Assembly (NCBI GenBank): GCA_035495255.1 | Contig: DATJGD010000039.1 | Span: 54,677 to 118,676, forward strand | Direction: 5' to 3' | Origin: Bacteroidota bacterium | Lineage (GTDB): Bacteria; Bacteroidota; Ignavibacteria; UBA10030; SZUA-254 | Length of the DNA stretch: 64,000 nt | Notes under the pieces: model-generated | Told to the model about the DNA's origin: nothing | Databases searched by the model: none | What the model saw: only the letters and a program-made list of their open reading frames with translations | Translations under genes and position numbers: made by a program | Shown here: in pieces, positions 5,686-14,746 of the stretch | How the letters are laid out: each line of letters begins with the position of its first letter | Position numbering within the stretch: position 1 is the stretch's first letter

Positions 5686-7221
5686 ATGAAGAATCTTCTT
5701 ATCTATTTGATCGTCATCGTCGGAGGAGCTGCGGTCCTGGCAATCGAGCTGCTGGGGACAAGAATCCTTGGCCCGTTCTACGGGGTGAGCATCTTTCTCT
5801 GGTCCGCCCTCATTTCTATAACCCTCATCGCGCTGAGCGCCGGCTACTTTATCGGGGGCAAGCTTGCCGACAGGTCAGCTTCGATCGCCCGCCTCTGCAC
5901 GCTCATCGCGATTGCCGGAGTCTGGATTGACGCAGTCCCCTGGCTGAAATACCCCGTCCTCAGCTCCACCGAACAATTCGGATTGCGATGGGCGGTACTT
6001 CTTGCATCGTTCGTGCTCTTTTTTCCCCCGCTCGCTCTTCTCGGGATGGTAAGTCCGTACGCGATCAAGTTGAAAACGAAGGACCTCAGCGAGGTCGGCC
6101 GTTCAGCGGGAAATCTCTACGCCATTTCGACGCTCGCCAGCGTGATCGCCGCGCTCGCAACCGGATTCTATCTTATTCCCAATTTCGGGATTTTCCGCCT
6201 CACCCTTGCGACCGGAGGCCTGCTTATTCTGACAGCGCTCATCGGTTTTGCGCTCGATCGAAAGATTGCCGCAGCAACAGCGGCGACCCTCCTCATTGCG
6301 GCCTCAAGCTTTTTGTTTATCAACTCGTCGTTTGAACATATCGACCCGGCAAAAGGACTTATCGCGATTGAGCAAAGCCCGTATGCCGAGCTCAGAGTCC
6401 TTGACCAGGAAGATTCCCGATATCTCCTGATCGACGGCGGCATCCATACGATCGTCGATACCGCGACGTGGAAATCATATTACCACTACGCGGCGGTGAT
6501 GGATATTCCAAAATACTTTTTTAATAAGCCGGGAAGCATGCTCCTCATCGGGATCGGCGGAGGTTCGCTCGTGAAGCAGTACGCGAAAGATGACTGGAAG
6601 GTTGATGCCGTTGATATCGACCCAAAGGTGATTACGTTCGCGCGAAAATATTTCAATCTCTTCCCTTCCGAAGGGAATGTTATGGAAATGGATGGAAGGA
6701 AGTATCTATCATCGACGAAGAACTACTACGATGTTATCCTTCTCGATGCGTTTGGAAGCAGCGAGATACCGTTTCACCTTGTCACGAAGGAGGTCTTCAG
6801 CCTTATCGCAACGCGGCTCAACAATGATGGAGTGTTTGCACTTAATGTGGAAGCTATCGGATGGGACGATCCGATCGTGAAGACCCTCATCGCCACGATG
6901 AAGCAGGCATTCACAGACGTCATCGCACTTCCGCAGGAGGAGCCGCCGACGAAGCTCGGAAACATCATCCTGATGGCTTCAAAGAAGAAGCTCGTCCCTT
7001 TGCGGGAACCCGAACGAAACGAGTTACTGGACCCGGAATGGCGCTACAGTCCTGCCTATCAGAAAGTGCATGCCTGGGATAACCGGTTTACGACCGATAC
7101 GACCGGAGTTCAGATACTCACGGACGATCTCAACCCGATCGATATCCGGACTGAGCAGATCAATCTTGCAGCGCGGATGGATTTACACAAGTATTTTCAG
7201 AAGACCGGGGTGAGCTGGTAA
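5686..7221 (+). CDS. Membrane-anchored spermidine/spermine-synthase-family protein (polytopic N-terminal domain + class I methyltransferase-fold aminopropyltransferase-like domain)
   Basis: About 6 N-terminal TM helices, then LLIGIGGGSLVKQYAKD…VDAVDIDPKVITFARKYF…YDVILLDAF (spermidine synthase fold). 511 aa. Confidence 0.7.
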   Translation: MKNLLIYLIVIVGGAAVLAIELLGTRILGPFYGVSIFLWSALISITLIALSAGYFIGGKLADRSASIARLCTLIAIAGVWIDAVPWLKYPVLSSTEQFGLRWAVLLASFVLFFPPLALLGMVSPYAIKLKTKDLSEVGRSAGNLYAISTLASVIAALATGFYLIPNFGIFRLTLATGGLLILTALIGFALDRKIAAATAATLLIAASSFLFINSSFEHIDPAKGLIAIEQSPYAELRVLDQEDSRYLLIDGGIHTIVDTATWKSYYHYAAVMDIPKYFFNKPGSMLLIGIGGGSLVKQYAKDDWKVDAVDIDPKVITFARKYFNLFPSEGNVMEMDGRKYLSSTKNYYDVILLDAFGSSEIPFHLVTKEVFSLIATRLNNDGVFALNVEAIGWDDPIVKTLIATMKQAFTDVIALPQEEPPTKLGNIILMASKKKLVPLREPERNELLDPEWRYSPAYQKVHAWDNRFTTDTTGVQILTDDLNPIDIRTEQINLAARMDLHKYFQKTGVSW

Positions 7222-7227
7222 GAAAAA

Positions 7228-7254
7228 GGCCGGCATTGCTCGTGCGCGCCGGCC
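7228..7254 (-). terminator. GC-rich hairpin between convergent genes; rho-independent terminator for the DUF4097 operon (possibly bidirectional)
   Basis: GGCCGGC-13 nt-GCCGGCC, followed on the minus strand by TTTTTCT; 22 nt downstream of the 7276 stop. Confidence 0.5.
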
Positions 7255-7275
7255 CTGTCTTCGGAATCCTTTCTG

Positions 7276-8145
7276 CTACTTCGCAATCCGGATATAAATA
7301 TCCCCGTTAAAATTCTTGAACATCATTTCAGCCCCGCCGCCATTGATCTTTCCCCTCATGCTTTTCTCCAGTACCACGCGGTACGTTCCCCGTTTGCTTC
7401 GCGGAGACGCTTCTGTTTTTGACGAAGGCTTTTCCATCGTGATATCGAAATCGCTGTAGATCTCTCCCTGATCGTTTTTCATCATGAGATTCGCCTTCGC
7501 ATCCGCCGGGAGAGCGACATCAATGTTCCCGTTCAGCGAGCTGAACGACATTGACTTCGCCGCATCAACTTTGTCGAAGACCACAATGATTTCGCCATTG
7601 ATCGCATCGACGACGGCCGAGCCGGAAACATGGTCGATGGTTACCGGTCCATTGACGTTGCTCGCCTCGACGTCGCCGATGACGTGGTCTACCTTGATTT
7701 TCCCGTCGTTGACAGTGTTGAGTTTCATTGACGCGTGTGCCGGCACCTGGACCGTGACGTCGACATTCCGCGATGTGCCGACTAACCCGGTACTCACGCT
7801 GACAGTATTATTATCCTCTTCGACGCTGAGGCCGGTGCTGGTATTCGGAATCCTGTGCAATCCGCGCTTGCCTTTCGACACGCGGTCACCCTTTTCTTCA
7901 TCATCATCTCTATCCCGCCTGTCTTCGTCGTCGGTCTCCGAACGAAGAGACGCTTCGACGATGACATCCTTGCCTGAAGTCCCCTTGACAATAATGCTGC
8001 CATTGAGAATCCCAACCTTTAGAAAGACGGGCCGCGAGGGATCCGTGAGAGGAATCGTGAGCCGGTCAGGCGTCGACGTCTCCTGCGCGTGAGTGATCGC
8101 CATCAGGCTCAACAGTAATATCGAAATCATCAATAGCGTTTTCAT
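7276..8145 (-). CDS. Secreted DUF4097-family (beta-helical 'putative adhesin', LiaF-C-terminal-like) protein with an acidic insert
   Basis: Signal peptide; repeated …VNGPVTIDHVSGSAVVDAINGEIIV… beta-strand repeats typical of DUF4097; acidic stretch ETDDEDRRDRDDDEEKGDR. Confidence 0.6.
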   Translation of the reverse strand: MKTLLMISILLLSLMAITHAQETSTPDRLTIPLTDPSRPVFLKVGILNGSIIVKGTSGKDVIVEASLRSETDDEDRRDRDDDEEKGDRVSKGKRGLHRIPNTSTGLSVEEDNNTVSVSTGLVGTSRNVDVTVQVPAHASMKLNTVNDGKIKVDHVIGDVEASNVNGPVTIDHVSGSAVVDAINGEIIVVFDKVDAAKSMSFSSLNGNIDVALPADAKANLMMKNDQGEIYSDFDITMEKPSSKTEASPRSKRGTYRVVLEKSMRGKINGGGAEMMFKNFNGDIYIRIAK

Positions 8146-8212
8146 CTTTTTCTCCTTTGGTCATCCAATAATTGTAAGTACACTGCGCTGTATCTGAAGG
8201 GCCTGCCCCTCG

Positions 8213-9067
8213 CTACATTTTCCTTCTGATGTAAATATCTCCGTTCAGGGAATCGAAATACATCTCCGGCCCCCCTTTTGCGACACGCACCGCGTACGTA
8301 TCCGCCGACCGGTAGACCTTCCTGTGCCGCTCGCTGTTGTTGCTCACCGGGGATTTTCGTAGTATCGACTCTACTGAAAAATCAGTATACACCTCGCCGT
8401 TGAACGTCTTCAGGACGAGATCGGCGGAAAGGTCATCCGGAAATTCGGTCTCGACTTTGCCGTTCACGGTCGTGAACGTGCATGGCCCGCCCGGGTTGCG
8501 GACAAATGTGGCAACCACGCTCCCGTTGACGGTCGTCGCTTTCCCGAATCCGGCCATATCCAGGACCTCGACCGGCCCGTTCACGTTGTGTACTTCGAAC
8601 TCGCCCTCAATTCCCTTCACATGCACTTCGCCGTGGTTCACCGTCTTAATTTCCATATCAAGTTTGGAAGGCACCTGAAGTTCAAAATCGAAATCGACGT
8701 CGTACCCGTAATAGTTCCACCCGCGGTATTCGACAGATCCGTCGCGCTCTCTCCAGGGAGCATTGACGTAGAGGAGAAGCCTTCCGGGTTCTTCGGAGAT
8801 ATCGAGTGTCACCGATTCCTCCGCCTGCCGGGCCTTCCGTTCCGACTGCGCATGAATTGTCTTCTTAACAACCACCCTGACCTCATCGCCGGACGTCCCG
8901 ACGATGTTGATAGAGCCGTTCATGTTATCGACGAGAAGAAAACGCTTCCCTTCCGAGGGCTTGAGAATATATGACTTCGTAATGTCGGATGATTTCGAGA
9001 TGTCGGTTGATTGGCCGATACTGAACATACTTATACACGCGAACAATATGGTAGCGACGCTCTTCAT
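8213..9067 (-). CDS. Secreted DUF4097-family protein (paralogue of 7276..8145)
   Basis: Signal peptide; same repeat architecture (…VNHGEVHVKGIEGEFEVHNVNGPVEVLDMAG…VNGKVETEFP…). Confidence 0.6.
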   Translation of the reverse strand: MKSVATILFACISMFSIGQSTDISKSSDITKSYILKPSEGKRFLLVDNMNGSINIVGTSGDEVRVVVKKTIHAQSERKARQAEESVTLDISEEPGRLLLYVNAPWRERDGSVEYRGWNYYGYDVDFDFELQVPSKLDMEIKTVNHGEVHVKGIEGEFEVHNVNGPVEVLDMAGFGKATTVNGSVVATFVRNPGGPCTFTTVNGKVETEFPDDLSADLVLKTFNGEVYTDFSVESILRKSPVSNNSERHRKVYRSADTYAVRVAKGGPEMYFDSLNGDIYIRRKM

Positions 9068-9109
9068 AAACGATCTCCTGTTCTTACAGATTGGTGGTCG
9101 ACAAATTTC

Positions 9110-9913
9110 CTAGCTGGCAGCATTGATGCTTTTCTGAATATGATCTTTGACATTCTTGTTCACCAGCGGATCCCGGAGCATGCGTTTCAACACATCCACG
9201 ACATCCCTGTTGTGCGACTGCAGAAGCATATCCATGATCGCGATCTGAACAAGAGGCGAATTCTGCTTCGGCAGCGCTTTGAGGACCTCATCCTGCACCG
9301 GCTGCTGCTTGATCTGTTCCGTGAGCGCATCGAGCGCGGCGAGGCGTACATTGACGTTGGCGTCATACTTCAGAGTGTGCAGGAGCGCGGTAACAACTTC
9401 AGGATCTGTCGAGCCGAGTCCACTGCCCATGCTCACCCCGCGCAGGCGCTCAGAAGCGGATTGCTGCTGCAGGAGGGAGATCGTCAACAGACGGTTCATG
9501 TCCTTCATCTGCGCCTGAAGCTGAACCAGCTGGCTGCCGTCCGCCTGCTCAGTGTGCAAACGATATCCTATCAACCCCCCTGCTACCAGGAGAAGAACTC
9601 CCAGCCCAAACTGGATCACCGGATTACCAAGAAGGAAACGCTCAAGAAAACCAGGGCGCGATTCCTGCGACCGGGCTGTGCGCTCACCCTGCTCATAGGC
9701 GTCGATCATGCTGTGGACATGCGCACGAAGATGTTCACTGGGATGGTGCTCCGGAAGGGCCCCGAGATCCCCCCAGATTTGCTGCAGCGAAGCAAGCTCC
9801 CGCCTGCAATCGGTGCACCCCGCAAGATGCGCTTCGATGTTGCGTGTTTGATAATCGTCGAGCTCGCCGGAGACATAGGCAAGGAGCTGCTCGGTGACAT
9901 GTTGCGTACTCAT
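9110..9913 (-). CDS. Anti-sigma factor: N-terminal zf-HC2 zinc finger, one TM helix, C-terminal HEAT-like repeats
   Basis: …HLAGCTDCRRELASLQQIW… (H-x3-C-x2-C); TM VIQFGLGVLLLVAGGLIGY; C-terminal …VRLAALDALTEQ…LVQIAIMDMLLQ… HEAT-like. Start overlaps the sigma-factor stop by 4 nt (9910-9913). Confidence 0.7.
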   Translation of the reverse strand: MSTQHVTEQLLAYVSGELDDYQTRNIEAHLAGCTDCRRELASLQQIWGDLGALPEHHPSEHLRAHVHSMIDAYEQGERTARSQESRPGFLERFLLGNPVIQFGLGVLLLVAGGLIGYRLHTEQADGSQLVQLQAQMKDMNRLLTISLLQQQSASERLRGVSMGSGLGSTDPEVVTALLHTLKYDANVNVRLAALDALTEQIKQQPVQDEVLKALPKQNSPLVQIAIMDMLLQSHNRDVVDVLKRMLRDPLVNKNVKDHIQKSINAAS

Positions 9914-10611
9914 GACGGTTCCCCCGATAGTTCGTGGAAGATTTTTCGTAGATCGTTCATTGCGCGATGAACCCGGACCTTTACGGCCTCAACCGAACAG
10001 CCGAGCACTTCGGCAATAGTCTCATATTTCATGTCCCGATATCTGCTCAGGATAAGGACCTCACGTTTATCGGGAGAGAGCCGTGCCAGCGCTTCATCCA
10101 GCATGGCGACATTCTGTTTATAGACCAGTGCTTCTCCCGGGTTTGGGTCGCGGGCGGGAACCTCGTGCTGCGCTTCATCGAATTGTTCTTCATTTTTCCA
10201 TCGCTTGGCATGGTCGACCCGGACATTGCGCGCGACGTGGTACATCCAGGCGGTAAAACTTCCGTCGCCCCGGAAGGTGTTCCTGTATTTCAGCATCCGG
10301 AGAAAGACTTCCTGGACGCAGTCCTCGCTTACGGCCGCATCTTTCGTAAGCCGGACATAGTAGTTGTACAATGGTATGTGATGGCGTTCGAACAGCGCGC
10401 CGAGGCTGCTGAACTCCCCATCTCGTACTCTGAGCATGAGTTCCGTATCCGTTGCTGGATTCACGTGCGAATTAAAGGTTCCGTATGATAAACTGAGGAT
10501 TGAAGAAAAGGTTACAGGAATAACGGGAAAGAAGCAAACAGGGGAAAACCCTTCTGCGGAGGGCTCATCGTGCATCACAAGGGAGATGGATCGGTACCCA
10601 AATGGCCACAA
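9910..10611 (-). CDS. ECF (sigma-70 family, group IV) RNA polymerase sigma factor; real start probably the ATG at 10435-10437 (MLRVRDGEF…)
   Basis: Region 2 (…VQEVFLRMLKYRNTFRGDGSFTAWMYHVARNVRVDHAKRW…) and region 4 HTH (…REVLILSRYRDMKYETIAEVLGCSVEAVKVRVHRAMNDLR). The 58 aa upstream of M59 look non-coding. Confidence 0.85.
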   Translation of the reverse strand: MWPFGYRSISLVMHDEPSAEGFSPVCFFPVIPVTFSSILSLSYGTFNSHVNPATDTELMLRVRDGEFSSLGALFERHHIPLYNYYVRLTKDAAVSEDCVQEVFLRMLKYRNTFRGDGSFTAWMYHVARNVRVDHAKRWKNEEQFDEAQHEVPARDPNPGEALVYKQNVAMLDEALARLSPDKREVLILSRYRDMKYETIAEVLGCSVEAVKVRVHRAMNDLRKIFHELSGEPS

Positions 10612-10661
10612 CCCTGCAGATCACCGGAGCCGCAGGGAGTTAGTCCTTCGAAGCCGATAAT

Positions 10662-12413
10662 CTATTGGATGATCGCAGGCAGAATATACCTGGGCACGTA
10701 CACCCTCTGGGCAGTGAAGGTGTTATCGGAGTTATAATTGCCGCCGAAGAATGCAACGGCGAGATCAAGCTCGGGGATCCCCATGGAGATTTGGCCTCCG
10801 TTCCCGGCGGCGAAGTAGGCTCTCAAAGGGTGTCCTTTGTATTGATAATCTTCCAGCCACCAGAGGTAACCATACTTGCGGTTGAACTTCTTCCCCAGGA
10901 GGGAGAGCTCGGATGTTGCACGGTCAGACCATTCCCTGGAATAAATCCGCTTACCGTGCCACACTCCTCCGTTGAGGTGTAGTTGTGCAAGCTTCAGGAA
11001 ATCGCGAAGAAGGAACTTCGCTCCGCCGGTAAACGTAAATTCCTCCTTCGATGGAGCAACAGTTTGATAATACGTTTTCATTCCTAGCGGATCGGTGATG
11101 AGTTTTCGCAGGAGCGTCGCCGTATGCTGATTCGCAGCGCGGGAAACGACTCCCGCAACGAGATTCGCGCCGGTACTGCAGTACACTCCCTTTTCCCCGG
11201 GGTTGCGAACCATATTGAGTTCTAATGTCCATTTATATAAGTCGCCGGTTTGCTCCCACATTTTGTCCTCGTAGCCCGCGGAGTTCTCATCCCCTTCGTC
11301 GCAATCGAATCCTGAGGACATTGTGAGAAGATGCGCCACGGTCATCGCCCTCTTCCGTGGTTCGAGATTCTCCGGAAAATCTCCGCCGTTCATGATCTTA
11401 TAGACAAAATCCTTGTCACTGATCCTGATCCCCGACTGGATCGCAGCTCCCATCATTTCGGATGCAAAACTCTTGCCTGCGGACCGGGTATCGTGAGGTT
11501 TTTCCGCGTTCTCTCCGTGAAAATATTCCTCTAAAACTATTTTTCCGTGACGTGCGATGATGACGGCATGGTCTTCCTGCGCATCGATGGAATCGAACGG
11601 AGTATCAGTCAATACCTGAATGAATTTCTCGATGCTGTCGCGCGAAATGCCGACGTCCGTAAGGGAGGCGGTCTCCCATTCGTCATCCCGCTTGAGAGGT
11701 GGGGCGTAAACATATTTTACGCCCGGACGGCCGCGCGGATAAATGTCTGATGGCCCGTTCTCCGGTATGCGGCTGAAATCATATGTTCCCCCGCGATTCG
11801 GCATGTAGACTGAAAGGACGTCCTCGTCACTGTCGTATCGCCCTTCCGCAAGCATTTCCCCGGGCTTTCCATCTTTGTCCGCCGCGAAAAATTTCACCGA
11901 GGCGCCATCCTGGTTCAGGTGATCGAATCGATACTGCGTATATCCAAAATTATGCTCGGGGTTTCGCAATGTGACTGCAGTGCTCCCATCGCTTTTTCTC
12001 TTGATAATCAGATAAGCACGCTCTACAGTCGGCCACGGTATCACCTCTCCCTGCCAAACGCCGGATGTATTTTTTGTAAGCGTTATCGGACAAGCCCCAA
12101 CACCTTTTTGGTTCCAATATCCTGTAATTCGGGTTCGATTATTATCGAAATAGGCTTTCAACGTATTCTTCTTCACCTCCGCGAAGAGCGACTCGGCGTG
12201 GATGCTGACCGGGACTGAACTGCCTGCAATCTCAGCAGAAAATTCGCGGTTGAGTTGTCTGATAGTAAGAGTCCCCCGGAGATCCGGTCCGAAGAATTTT
12301 TTGGCCTCCCATAAGCCGGTGAGTTCTTTAGGAGTAGGAGGGGTTTGCGAAATGGCAATAGAAAATATTGTTCCAAAGGACAATAAGAACGTAAAAATGC
12401 GTAAGGAGGCCAT
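10662..12413 (-). CDS. Secreted beta-lactamase-fold serine hydrolase with a ~300-aa N-terminal extra domain
   Basis: Signal peptide; S-x-x-K candidate (RSAGKSF); …MSSGFDCDEGD…YCSTGANLVAGVV…; 583 aa. Same strand, 50 nt upstream of the ECF sigma gene. Confidence 0.65.
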   Translation of the reverse strand: MASLRIFTFLLSFGTIFSIAISQTPPTPKELTGLWEAKKFFGPDLRGTLTIRQLNREFSAEIAGSSVPVSIHAESLFAEVKKNTLKAYFDNNRTRITGYWNQKGVGACPITLTKNTSGVWQGEVIPWPTVERAYLIIKRKSDGSTAVTLRNPEHNFGYTQYRFDHLNQDGASVKFFAADKDGKPGEMLAEGRYDSDEDVLSVYMPNRGGTYDFSRIPENGPSDIYPRGRPGVKYVYAPPLKRDDEWETASLTDVGISRDSIEKFIQVLTDTPFDSIDAQEDHAVIIARHGKIVLEEYFHGENAEKPHDTRSAGKSFASEMMGAAIQSGIRISDKDFVYKIMNGGDFPENLEPRKRAMTVAHLLTMSSGFDCDEGDENSAGYEDKMWEQTGDLYKWTLELNMVRNPGEKGVYCSTGANLVAGVVSRAANQHTATLLRKLITDPLGMKTYYQTVAPSKEEFTFTGGAKFLLRDFLKLAQLHLNGGVWHGKRIYSREWSDRATSELSLLGKKFNRKYGYLWWLEDYQYKGHPLRAYFAAGNGGQISMGIPELDLAVAFFGGNYNSDNTFTAQRVYVPRYILPAIIQ

Positions 12414-12506
12414 ATGATCTTCCAGTTGAGTGGTAATTAAGATGGGTGTAAGACGGAGGGAGGGCGGGAAAGGTTTACAGAGGCAAAAGTCGGCTTCGAT
12501 GGAAGC

Positions 12507-13076
12507 CTAATATCTTATCCCAGTATCACGTTGCAACACATCTCCGCTGTTAGCATCGAGGATTAGGTATGGAAAACCGTTTGCGCCTTGAATTTTCCAT
12601 GCTAAGCTATACTTCGATGGTATGTTTGAACCCGGAGTTGTGGCGAAGAATCCGAGCCTGTAGGAAATACACAGGCTATCAAATTCCATGACTTGCCTTG
12701 CTTTTCGTATGGCTTCTGTGTACGTAATCCGAGCATTGTGTGAAAGATTGGGAGGGGATGGAATTCTGTCTGGTGATGAGACACTCCCGTCCCGCTTAGA
12801 CTTGTACAAGCGATACGTATCGGTGAAACTTAATAAACCGTCGAAATATACATTGGCGAAAACACCGACCGTATAGTTGTCGTCAAAAAGCCGAACTACC
12901 TGCAACTGAGGATACTTGGCGAGAGTATCGAGTAGTTCAGGCGCGGTCCGCAAAGGAGTGAGTGAAACAAGATGGTCACGGTCGGTCAGTTCGGTGGTGG
13001 TCGTGCAGATGTTGTTACTGCTGCCGCACGCCATGAAAAGAGCGGAAAGAAGGGGAATGAGTGCGAGCCGGTTCAT
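12507..13076 (-). CDS. Lipoprotein, hypothetical; C-terminal region PepSY-like (weak)
   Basis: Lipobox LSALFMACGSS; C-terminus …ITYTEAIRKARQVM…LAWKIQGANGFPYLILDANSGDVLQRD resembles a PepSY (peptidase propeptide/YpeB) repeat. Confidence 0.45.
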   Translation of the reverse strand: MNRLALIPLLSALFMACGSSNNICTTTTELTDRDHLVSLTPLRTAPELLDTLAKYPQLQVVRLFDDNYTVGVFANVYFDGLLSFTDTYRLYKSKRDGSVSSPDRIPSPPNLSHNARITYTEAIRKARQVMEFDSLCISYRLGFFATTPGSNIPSKYSLAWKIQGANGFPYLILDANSGDVLQRDTGIRY

Positions 13077-13119: not shown

Positions 13120-13899
13120 TCACTTCGCCACGATCAATTTTTTCACCGCTGTAAACTCTCCAACGCGAAGCCTGTAAAAATAGACTCCGCTCGAGAGTCC
13201 ACTTGCATCAAACTGCGCCGAGTAAGGGCCTGTAAGTTGTTTCCCCTCAACAAGGGTCGCCACTTCCCGGCCGATGACATCATACACTTTCAAAGACACA
13301 ATGCTGGAAACAGGTATGTCGAATCGAATATGAGTGACAGGGTTGAATGGATTCGGGAAATTATCATACAACCTGAACGCCGATGGCGTAGCATAGGCTC
13401 CCCCCACATCCGCTACACCCGAATTCGTCATTAAAATAAAGTCTGAGGTATCCGGGCAAGCTCCAAACGTAGCGATGTAAACGCGCATACTCATTTCATT
13501 TGCAGAAATCCTGCACCCTTCAAGCACGAATGCTTCAAGAAAGTTCTCAACGTAATGCGGGGTTTTAAAGCAGCTGTCATTAATGAAATATCCCCCGGTC
13601 CGGATTACATGATGATCAAAATGTCCCATGAGGCAGGGATACGTCGGCGGATCTAATGAGTTGACCCTCAGATAGCCCGTGAAAATAGCCGAATCAAGTC
13701 TCGGGACAGAGCCGGCGGGAACTGAGATGTGGACCTGTAGTGAGTCTCCGGGAGCGTTTGATTCATACCATCCGGGAGCGATCTGCGCGAAAAGAGCAAC
13801 GGGCGCTATCAGCGTTAAGATCGCGATGGTGCAAAATATCCACTCCGAATTTCTCGCAAAGAATACTCCCTCCCGAATCTTCCTTCCTCCTCCATGCAT
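13120..13899 (-). CDS. T9SS (Por) C-terminal sorting-domain cargo protein, function unknown
   Basis: C-terminus …YDNFPNPFNPVTHIRFDIPVSSIVSLKVYDVIGREVATLVEGKQLTGPYSAQFDASGLSSGVYFYRLRV… (T9SS type A CTD); N-terminal signal peptide. Confidence 0.7.
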   Translation of the reverse strand: MHGGGRKIREGVFFARNSEWIFCTIAILTLIAPVALFAQIAPGWYESNAPGDSLQVHISVPAGSVPRLDSAIFTGYLRVNSLDPPTYPCLMGHFDHHVIRTGGYFINDSCFKTPHYVENFLEAFVLEGCRISANEMSMRVYIATFGACPDTSDFILMTNSGVADVGGAYATPSAFRLYDNFPNPFNPVTHIRFDIPVSSIVSLKVYDVIGREVATLVEGKQLTGPYSAQFDASGLSSGVYFYRLRVGEFTAVKKLIVAK

Positions 13900-13934: not shown

Positions 13935-14372
13935 CTACTGCTTTGTCGCTGTCCACGTCCCGCCGCCCCCCGACGTGTTGTATGTCCCTCCTCCGCTGCT
14001 GCCGTACATGGTGCCGGTCAACGAACCAACCGGCGAGCCTGCATAATAAATATCTGCGTTCACCGATCCGTTCGAAGAGACCTGGCCTGTCACAGTGAGG
14101 ATGCCGTTTGCTCCCGACAGGGTAGCATCAAATGAGAACCTGCCGTCAGAACCTATGGCGGCATTCTTGCTCCCCGAGAAGGTTCCGCCAAATGTCACCT
14201 GCCAGGTTCCCGCATACGGATTGTTGCCGGATCCGGCCGGATTGTCCTCGGCACAACCCACCATAACGAGCAGTGCAATAATGAACATCCTCATAGGTAA
14301 ACCCCGGTTGATGGAAGCAGTTGTACTTCCGTCACGTCTGATATGCGATGTCATAGCTTCGTCGCGCTCCAT
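13935..14372 (-). CDS. Small Gly/Ser/Thr-rich lipoprotein (paralogue A); probable start MRMFIIALLVMVGCAEDN at ~14294
   Basis: Lipobox LVMVGC; mature part NPYAGTWQVTFGGTFSGS…IGSDGRFSFDATLSG…GTYNTSGGGGTWTATKQ. Confidence 0.55.
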   Translation of the reverse strand: MERDEAMTSHIRRDGSTTASINRGLPMRMFIIALLVMVGCAEDNPAGSGNNPYAGTWQVTFGGTFSGSKNAAIGSDGRFSFDATLSGANGILTVTGQVSSNGSVNADIYYAGSPVGSLTGTMYGSSGGGTYNTSGGGGTWTATKQ

Positions 14373-14746
14373 GTTCCGTTTCCTCCGGCAGAAGAGTAGG
14401 TGCCGTTGCCGCTGCTGGCCGACAGGTTACCTGAAAGGTAGCCGACCGACTGGCCTTGATAGGTAGCGTCCGCGCTCACAGCACCTGTGGCGGAAACCGT
14501 CCCCGTCCAGGTTACCGGCCCGCTTAGCCCGGATGCCGTCGCGCTGAACGAAAATGTACCGTCGGAGCCGATAGTTATCGTTCTGCTGCCGGAAAACGCT
14601 CCCGAGAAACTCACTGTCCAATTGCCCGCATATGGATTTGCGCCGGGGCCGGGTCCTGATGTGTCGTCCTTGCATCCGGCGCACATCGCCACAACCAGGC
14701 ACAATGCCAATGCTCCCAACATTATTTTTCTCATGTGTTCCTCCAT
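14351..14746 (-). CDS. Small Gly/Ser/Thr-rich lipoprotein (paralogue B); probable start MRKIMLGALALCLVVAMCAGC at ~14734
   Basis: About 50% identical to paralogue A: NPYAGNWTVSFSGAFSGS…IGSDGTFSFSATASG…GTYSSAGGNGTWSATKL. Confidence 0.55.
   Translation of the reverse strand: MEEHMRKIMLGALALCLVVAMCAGCKDDTSGPGPGANPYAGNWTVSFSGAFSGSRTITIGSDGTFSFSATASGLSGPVTWTGTVSATGAVSADATYQGQSVGYLSGNLSASSGNGTYSSAGGNGTWSATKL

Follow-up and report, generated by a model that had tools for sequence, protein, structure and literature searches.

In Escherichia coli, the periplasmic protein RseB binds the ectodomain of the anti-sigma factor RseA, and the sigmaE regulon is large. In Lia-type systems (LiaF/LiaG of Bacillus subtilis, VraT of Staphylococcus aureus, LiaX of Enterococcus, and YvlB), a beta-helix known as Toastrack or DUF4097 takes part in envelope-stress signaling. 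The neighborhood closest to the one considered here is already known from an in silico study (Ravi et al. 2024, mSystems, PMC11237479, Supplementary Text S2.4 and Table S4). It comprises a sigma factor of the extracytoplasmic function (ECF) type, an anti-sigma factor with a zf-HC2 domain, a transmembrane (TM) segment, and extracellular HEAT repeats, and a single Toastrack protein or a pair of them, with a hydrophobic segment at the N terminus. A Lia-like, membrane-stress signaling role was proposed for it independently of the present work (Ravi et al. 2024, PMC11237479). No experimental work on this arrangement was found in the literature.

Here, we report on such a locus in a 64,000-nucleotide (nt) stretch of contig DATJGD010000039.1 (positions 54,677 to 118,676), hereafter called the window, in whose positions all coordinates are given. 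An initial annotation had placed five co-directional genes (serine hydrolase, ECF sigma factor, anti-sigma factor, and two DUF4097 proteins) in one operon and had read them as a compact envelope-stress or cell-surface signaling module. All five open reading frames (ORFs) are present on the minus strand where that annotation had put them. The conserved unit, however, is four genes and not five: the ECF sigma factor, the anti-sigma factor, and the Toastrack paralogues T1 and T2. The data support a compact module made up of an ECF sigma factor, its anti-sigma factor, and two exported proteins of the DUF4097 (Toastrack) kind, but not membership of the hydrolase. We regard it as probable (at roughly 60%) that this unit is a positively autoregulated cell-envelope signaling cassette, in which the Toastrack pair would serve as partner or feedback regulators of the sigma/anti-sigma switch and/or as its output.

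Conservation and predicted transcription of the four-gene unit

When one genome per species was scanned, 338 genomes held a relative, and gene order was counted in the best 80 loci. All four genes were co-directional in 66 of the 80 loci, so that the order sigma factor, anti-sigma factor, and two DUF4097 proteins, whose conservation the initial annotation had left to comparative genomics, is strongly kept among these species genomes. T1-type orthologues hold the T1 position in 66/80 loci, and T1-type and T2-type orthologues follow each other in fixed order, which argues that the duplication is old. Most of the remaining 14 loci were cut by contig ends, and four (L043, L049, L064, and L073) carried a single T2-like gene. 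Sigma and anti-sigma genes overlap by a median of 4 nt, and the two gaps that follow have medians of approximately 14 and 17 nt. At the locus studied here, the sigma and anti-sigma genes likewise overlap by ATGA and the downstream genes are separated by 42 and 67 nt, each gap containing a Shine-Dalgarno sequence. To this extent the short spacing proposed for the five genes is correct, but the gap between the hydrolase and sigma genes is 197 nt, since the sigma gene starts at GTG 10464 (see below), and cannot be called short.

Distant homologues of the anti-sigma factor (37 to 48% identity) that were traced to their contigs all lie in the order sigma factor, anti-sigma factor (zf-HC2 and HEAT), Toastrack, Toastrack. 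The flanking genes of six annotated distant loci are entirely different from each other and encode AhpC, an acetyltransferase, a subunit of a proton antiporter, a MarR/ABC exporter, or housekeeping functions. The hosts belong to Ignavibacteriota/Bacteroidota, Acidobacteriota (Bryobacteraceae, Terriglobia), and scattered other groups, and an exhaustive profile search (E <= 1e-30) returned no fewer than 1,448 clusters at the 50% identity level. The arrangement is as far from the textbook as had been supposed, yet it is widespread and was catalogued in 2024; the present locus adds a member to an uncharacterized but common type. Judged from sequence, the cassette is shown to be a tight four-gene unit with its own predicted promoter and terminator, and it is inherited as a block.

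The predicted promoter lies at 10482..10519 on the minus strand, ahead of the sigma gene, with a -35 element, TGTAACC, at 10516-10510 and a -10 element, CAGTTTA, at 10495-10489. Its motif, TGTAACCTTTT-N10-C(A/G)GT(T/A)T (the second half being CRGTWT in ambiguity code), is found upstream of the orthologous sigma gene in 69 of 77 non-redundant loci, and its distance to the start codon hardly varies. The AAC-containing -35 and the short GT-containing -10 give it the appearance of an ECF promoter, and its conserved place upstream of the sigma gene points to autoregulation; we infer that it is recognized by the sigma factor of the cassette itself. Compared with a 90%-identical relative, the zone from approximately 20 nt above the -35 element through the sigma start is 100% conserved, whereas indels abound in the spacer that follows the stop codon of the hydrolase gene. 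Of the two places in which the initial annotation had suggested looking for a sigma-dependent promoter, upstream of the sigma gene and upstream of the hydrolase gene, only the former holds a sigma-type motif (10519-10482), and no match to the motif was found upstream of the hydrolase gene. A further AACCTT element, GGAACCTTTAAT (10484-10473, minus strand), occurs in the predicted 5' leader, 30 nt downstream of the true -35 element. It was rejected as an alternative -35 element because a correctly spaced CRGT is missing and because the element is not kept in L173 and L174, which are 80%-identical relatives.

The promoter is also rare. It scored 34.5 bits with a position weight matrix, while the runner-up in the 64 kb scored 10.2 bits, which is the level of shuffled sequence; the scan thus gave no second copy in the window. 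The 890 kb of flanking sequence from 84 loci contained one copy per locus, the sole extra being a weak match in L069. A metagenome scan for exact matches to 18 specified bases of the pattern placed 54 of 80 matches directly upstream of an orthologous cassette, and the remaining 26 had no recurrent downstream gene and were often inside ORFs.

The GC hairpin with U-tract that had been noted at the end of the operon was confirmed as an intrinsic terminator (7220..7256, minus strand). The hairpin spans 7256-7226, is followed by UUUUUCUU, and has a folding free energy of about -20 kcal/mol (-19.6 to -21.8 kcal/mol; z = -2.7 versus shuffles). A generic scanner for sigma-70 promoters and terminators gave background-level output and missed this terminator, whose hairpin is outside its stem-loop criteria. 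No internal promoter or terminator was found among the four genes. An ORF for a multi-TM protein with a spermidine-synthase-like domain (5686-7221, plus strand) converges on the T2 gene. The stop codon of this ORF (7219-7221) and the U-tract of the T2 terminator overlap, so that a single hairpin may be shared by the two genes.

The grouping of the hydrolase with the other four genes was rejected on synteny and promoter position. No hydrolase homologue was found in the flanks (up to 6 to 7 kb on each side) of 84 distant loci, and the hydrolase gene adjoins the cassette only where the anti-sigma factors are 80 to 90% identical (L172 and L173). This adjacency in close relatives is ordinary short-range synteny, and the hydrolase lies outside the conserved module. 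Past the hydrolase stop codon, the spacer contains a GC hairpin, CCCTGCGG..CTGCAGGG (10612-10637, minus strand), without a clean U-tract. The hairpin is kept in the 90%-identical L172 despite indels around it and may be the hydrolase terminator.

Proteins encoded by the cassette and its neighbors

The domain searches recovered every domain that had been named for the cassette (Sigma70_r2/r4, zf-HC2, and DUF4097), although both DUF4097 proteins scored under the Pfam cutoff. The sigma gene (9910..10464, minus strand) encodes 184 amino acids (aa) and matches Sigma70_r2 (4e-15) and Sigma70_r4_2 (3e-16) in Pfam and the NCBIfam sigma70-ECF model TIGR02937 (102.4 bits; cutoff, 42.9). As in ECF (group IV) sigma factors, only regions sigma2 and sigma4 are present, without sigma1.1 or sigma3, and the nearest solved structures are those of SigL, AlgU, SigE, SigW, and RpoE. 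Neither HEAT nor DUF4097 is mentioned in the main text of the ECF classification by Casas-Pastor et al. (2021), which yielded no group assignment for this sigma factor.

Neither of the two sigma starts considered in the initial annotation, 10437 and 10611, is the best choice, and orthologues favor GTG 10464. GTG is the commonest codon at this position among orthologues, and the TD..LM residues that follow it are conserved. Codons 1 to 9 contain an in-frame stop in none of 77 loci, while stops occur just upstream of the GTG in 29 of the 77. The TTG at 10611 was ruled out because it is upstream of the conserved promoter, which would then fall inside the extended coding region. The ATG at 10437, nine codons downstream of the GTG and often picked by gene callers, was judged less likely on orthologue comparison. 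Several loci of Ignavibacteria type have a second ECF sigma gene approximately 5 kb downstream of the cassette (L176 [11299-12819], L009, L018, L021, L058, and L071). In the annotated L176 it is followed by another zf-HC2 anti-sigma gene.

The anti-sigma gene (9110..9913, minus strand) encodes a single-pass protein with matches above the Pfam cutoffs to zf-HC2 (34.7 bits; cutoff, 22.2) and HEAT_2 (30.7 bits; cutoff, 27.7). Its proposed architecture of a cytoplasmic zinc finger, one TM helix, and extracytoplasmic HEAT-like repeats was borne out by Pfam, by conservation, and by an AlphaFold2 (AF2) model. Of the zinc ligands, H29, C33, and C36 (HxxxCxxC) do not vary, and conservation of H5 is 90% or higher; by sequence these residues form a ChrR-type zinc site. 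A helical N-terminal domain with HxxxCxxC and a fourth zinc ligand is the hallmark of class I anti-sigma domains of the zinc-binding anti-sigma (ZAS) type, and the family profile matches the anti-sigma domains of DdvA, ChrR, RsiW, and RslA. ATGA coupling of the genes and their conserved adjacency would fit an anti-sigma factor that binds and inhibits its cognate sigma factor.

The AF2 model is all-helical, with a mean predicted local distance difference test (pLDDT) score of 75. Four N-terminal helices are followed by the TM helix (residues ~98-124) and by a juxtamembrane helix that is conserved. Another seven helices, all short, occupy residues 153-266 and correspond to approximately 3.5 HEAT-like repeats. 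The top Foldseek matches were alphaRep/HEAT-like repeat proteins and CpcE/F (root mean square deviation, ~3.2 Å over ~124 alignment columns), and the C-terminal part can be classified as a HEAT-like solenoid of the PBS-lyase type (HEAT_2). The solenoid is expected to be extracytoplasmic, since positive charge is more abundant N-terminal to the single TM helix and since it is in the cytoplasm that the N-terminal domain has to encounter the sigma factor; the same position was concluded by Ravi et al. (2024, PMC11237479). The most conserved stretches of the protein, SLLQQQSASERLxGV and DPNVNVRLAALDAL, are in this extracytoplasmic half, and SLLQQQSASERL / NVNVRLAALDAL form a conserved ectodomain surface. 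That conservation is highest outside the cytoplasm is consistent with a functional outer interface.

T1 (8213..9067, minus strand; 284 aa) and T2 (7276..8145, minus strand; 289 aa) are paralogous, with 29% identity (E = 2e-30). T1 reached 16.9 bits against DUF4097 (PF13349), below the cutoff of 22.9, and T2 had no Pfam match, so that neither attains the PF13349 gathering score. T2 had weak matches to the NCBIfam LiaG and LiaX models (6e-10 and 9e-10), and T1 likewise gave a weak LiaX match. The LiaG and LiaX scores are far under the family cutoffs (38.7 versus 285 bits and 37.9 versus 350 bits, respectively). PF13349 is carried by most T2 orthologues, and the AF2 model of T2 (pLDDT, 89.4; predicted template modeling score, 0.81) had as its best Protein Data Bank match 4QRK (E = 1.7e-8), with 3PET and 4OPW next, all Toastrack "putative adhesin" structures. 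The DUF4097 assignment is thus confirmed by homology and fold rather than by a Pfam threshold, for T2 through the AF2 model and Foldseek and for T1 as its paralogue. The acidic insert that had been remarked on in the second DUF4097 protein is real (approximately residues 66-94 of T2, with 12 D/E in 29 positions). It is predicted to be a disordered loop, and in orthologues its length varies while its composition, but not its sequence, is kept.

Both proteins are predicted to be exported and not intracellular. Among 111 members of the T2 family, A, G, or S occupies position -1 in 104 and Q position +1 in 106, giving the cleavage pattern AxA|Q. The segment preceding the mature protein has a median of 23 residues, with a positive n-region in 106 of the 111 and a longest uncharged run of median 18. 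T1 orthologues from different phyla have hydrophobic N-terminal signal sequences of the T2 type, with a Cys near the cleavage region in some. As these N termini are canonical cleavable Sec signals, T1 and T2 would end up in the periplasm or envelope. Export through the type IX secretion system, or as adhesins, was rejected, since neither protein has a Por_Secre_tail match and the family is also found in Acidobacteriota.

The hydrolase gene (10662..12413, minus strand) is a lineage-specific upstream neighbor of the cassette. Its product has a signal peptide and matches Beta-lactamase (PF00144) over residues 283-556 (82 bits, 5e-23), and an SxxK motif (SAGK) is present in the translation, as expected of the class C beta-lactamase/penicillin-binding protein-like fold. 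Residues 1-280 have no Pfam or NCBIfam assignment. The best NCBIfam equivalog for the C-terminal half, the 3-succinylated cholic acid synthase model, scored 77 bits against a cutoff of 800. Also on the minus strand, 13120-13899 encodes a protein whose C terminus carries the sorting domain of type IX secretion (Por_Secre_tail, 2.9e-10), which fits a host of Bacteroidota/Ignavibacteria type. The ORFs at 13935-14372 and 14351-14746, also on the minus strand, are tandem paralogues (47% identity, E = 2e-37) encoding small, Gly/Ser/Thr-rich products with lipoprotein-like N termini (..GC) and no family assignment. Two plus-strand ORFs, 9011-9970 (319 aa) and 7484-8092 (202 aa), are antisense to the anti-sigma and T2 genes, respectively, and are best read as unsupported shadow ORFs. 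A PADLOC search for an anti-phage defense role gave 0 matches, and nothing credible was found in Rfam for structured RNA in the region.

Proposed signaling model and alternative explanations

In the cassette as we picture it, one conserved ECF-type promoter would drive the sigma factor, anti-sigma factor, T1, and T2 as a unit ending in the terminator. At rest, the sigma factor would be sequestered by the anti-sigma domain. An envelope signal at the HEAT ectodomain would lead to its release, the probable route being regulated proteolysis of the kind that acts on RsiW or RseA, and the freed sigma factor would transcribe its own operon and amplify the response. Exported T1 and T2 could then act at the HEAT ectodomain as partners or feedback regulators, in an RseB-like or LiaF-like manner, and/or could be the main envelope output. 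A partnership of HEAT and Toastrack domains is favored by the conserved extracytoplasmic motifs, by strict co-inheritance, and by the regulatory roles of Toastrack domains in Lia-type systems. More speculative, and in our view doubtful, is a closed loop in which T1 and T2 dock on the HEAT ectodomain and the sigma factor recognizes only its own promoter, which would make the pair both co-sensor and sole effector. The acidic loop could, for example, capture cationic agents or metals and so titrate the Toastrack pair off the anti-sigma factor.

Several points weigh against the proposed cassette model. Contact of T1 or T2 with the HEAT ectodomain is hypothetical, and no site-1 protease is encoded in the cassette. 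Toastrack has been seen as predominantly intracellular (Ravi et al. 2024, PMC11237479). The single T2-like variant, present in the four genomes named above and in the metagenomic loci L085, L123, L133, L138, L139, and L150, indicates that the T1/T2 pair is not obligatory. The case for a regulon restricted to the own operon was built from the window, from short flanking stretches, and from a single scan with the exact pattern, and weaker sigma-dependent promoters may exist elsewhere in the genome. Finally, read-through from the hydrolase gene may occur, as no strong terminator was scored between it and the sigma gene.

The same observations can be accommodated differently. T1 and T2 might be pure effectors, for instance envelope protective or ligand sequestering through the acidic loop, that exert no feedback on a HEAT domain sensing something else. 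The sole detectable sigma-type promoter drives the cassette operon, so that T1 and T2 would be its only products besides the regulators if this holds genome-wide. A disordered loop that keeps its acidic composition and not its sequence is what would be expected of a charge-based binder, and solved relatives have been deposited as putative adhesins, pectinases, or lipid-binding proteins. However, Toastrack domains are repeatedly met with in a regulatory role beside sensors of envelope stress (LiaF, VraT, LiaX, YvlB), the strict co-inheritance of HEAT-type anti-sigma factors with Toastrack genes across phyla suggests a physical partnership, and the outputs of ECF systems usually differ between lineages. 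We consider a pure output role possible but rather unlikely, if still the strongest of the competing explanations. Less probable again is a cytoplasmic redox or thiol sensor, in which oxidation of the HxxxCxxC site would release the sigma factor as in RsrA or RslA and the outer domain and Toastracks would be accessory. Such a sensor could account for the invariant or nearly invariant H5, H29, C33, and C36, for a weak RsrA NCBIfam match (1e-4), and for the redox genes (AhpC, glutathione peroxidase, DsbA) near some loci. These redox neighbors are not conserved across loci, though, and conservation peaks in the extracytoplasmic half of the anti-sigma factor. ZAS motifs are structural in proteolysis-controlled anti-sigma factors such as RsiW, and soluble ZAS sensors need no TM helix or ectodomain.

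Two further explanations are contradicted by the data and appear very improbable. Co-transcription and functional participation of the hydrolase, for example in a SigP/RsiP-like beta-lactam response, would agree with the co-directional genes, the lack of a strong scored terminator in the 197-nt spacer, and the adjacency kept in 80 to 90%-identical relatives. This five-gene operon is opposed by the absence of the hydrolase from the flanks (up to 6 to 7 kb on each side) of all distant loci (more than 80) and by the conserved promoter downstream of the hydrolase gene, with no motif upstream of it. It is likewise at odds with the poorly conserved, indel-rich spacer between the hydrolase stop codon and the perfectly conserved promoter, and the conserved GC hairpin at 10637-10612 could terminate the hydrolase transcript. 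The other is a sub-membrane scaffold, with T1 and T2 N-terminally anchored and their beta-helices assembling signaling complexes at the inner leaflet, in keeping with the published general Toastrack model and the TM+Toastrack notation used for this neighborhood (Ravi et al. 2024, PMC11237479). Such a placement is difficult to reconcile with the canonical cleavable Sec signal of the T2 family (A/G/S at -1 and Q at +1 in ~94%), which T1 orthologues share, and even an uncleaved N-in anchor would put the domain outside.

What this analysis adds to the 2024 catalog is the promoter with evidence for autoregulation, the corrected sigma start, evidence for cleavable signal peptides on the Toastracks, and the finding of no second promoter site in the window or flanks. 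The cassette family is large, is common among uncultured bacteria, and occurs in abundant but poorly studied phyla of soil, sediment, and groundwater (e.g., Ignavibacteriota, Acidobacteriota). Exact gene boundaries, a sharply defined promoter that is usable as a reporter, and the predicted outside topology make the cassette testable, and experiments are feasible because a cultured host, Emticicia oligotrophica, has been named in the literature. As a naturally occurring variant, the sub-lineage with a single Toastrack gene could reveal whether both proteins are required. If exported Toastrack proteins do act at the ectodomain of a HEAT-type anti-sigma factor, this would be a new mode of ECF anti-sigma control, and the assumption of sub-membrane Toastrack action would have to be revised.

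Comparison with described systems

The neighborhood of Ravi et al. (2024) agrees with the present cassette in gene order and in domains and differs in several respects. That description was purely in silico and gave no promoter, which is defined here. It includes a DUF2089 (ZnR-HTH-SHOCT-like) protein as a fourth component, and no DUF2089 was present in the Pfam lists of six annotated loci or among nine ORFs scanned in the window. The N terminus of the Toastrack protein was taken to be a membrane anchor, whereas a cleavable signal peptide is predicted here. In addition, "a wide range of genes" was expected as targets, in contrast to the promoter of the own operon as the only one detected in this study.

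The rpoE-rseA-rseB-rseC operon of E. coli shares with the cassette an autoregulated ECF sigma gene, followed by genes for a single-pass anti-sigma factor with a cytoplasmic sigma-binding N-domain and then a periplasmic protein. However, neither RseA nor RseB is related in sequence or fold to the cassette proteins, and the ORFs scanned gave no Pfam match to RseA_N/RseA_C or MucB_RseB. The comparison is therefore an analogy of layout only. Lia-type systems have the Toastrack fold in common with the cassette, but they operate together with two-component systems and PspA-like effectors; the cassette contains no LiaI-LiaF-TM domain, histidine kinase (HisKA), response regulator, PspA, or TM4 and so does not match LiaFSR/LiaG. 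As their defining domains are absent, the cassette is only analogous to the Rse and Lia systems and not a member of either. Among solved DUF4097/DUF2807 Toastrack structures from the Joint Center for Structural Genomics (4QRK, 3PET, 4OPW, and 3LJY), identity to T2 is approximately 10% and TM-scores are 0.2 to 0.5. These proteins have no known sigma/anti-sigma context, and the acidic loop is extra in T2.

In its anti-sigma domain, the cassette protein resembles RsiW of B. subtilis, ChrR of Rhodobacter sphaeroides, and RslA of Mycobacterium tuberculosis, which have the same HxxxCxxC zinc motif with an upstream His. All three are matched by the family profile of the cassette anti-sigma factor (RslA as 3HUG chain B), and RsiW is also a single-pass protein. 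The sigmaW-RsiW, sigmaE-ChrR, and SigL-RslA operons differ in being without an exported Toastrack gene pair. The C-terminal parts differ as well: ChrR has a cupin domain and RsiW a short ectodomain cleaved by PrsW, whereas the anti-sigma factor of the cassette carries a HEAT-like solenoid.

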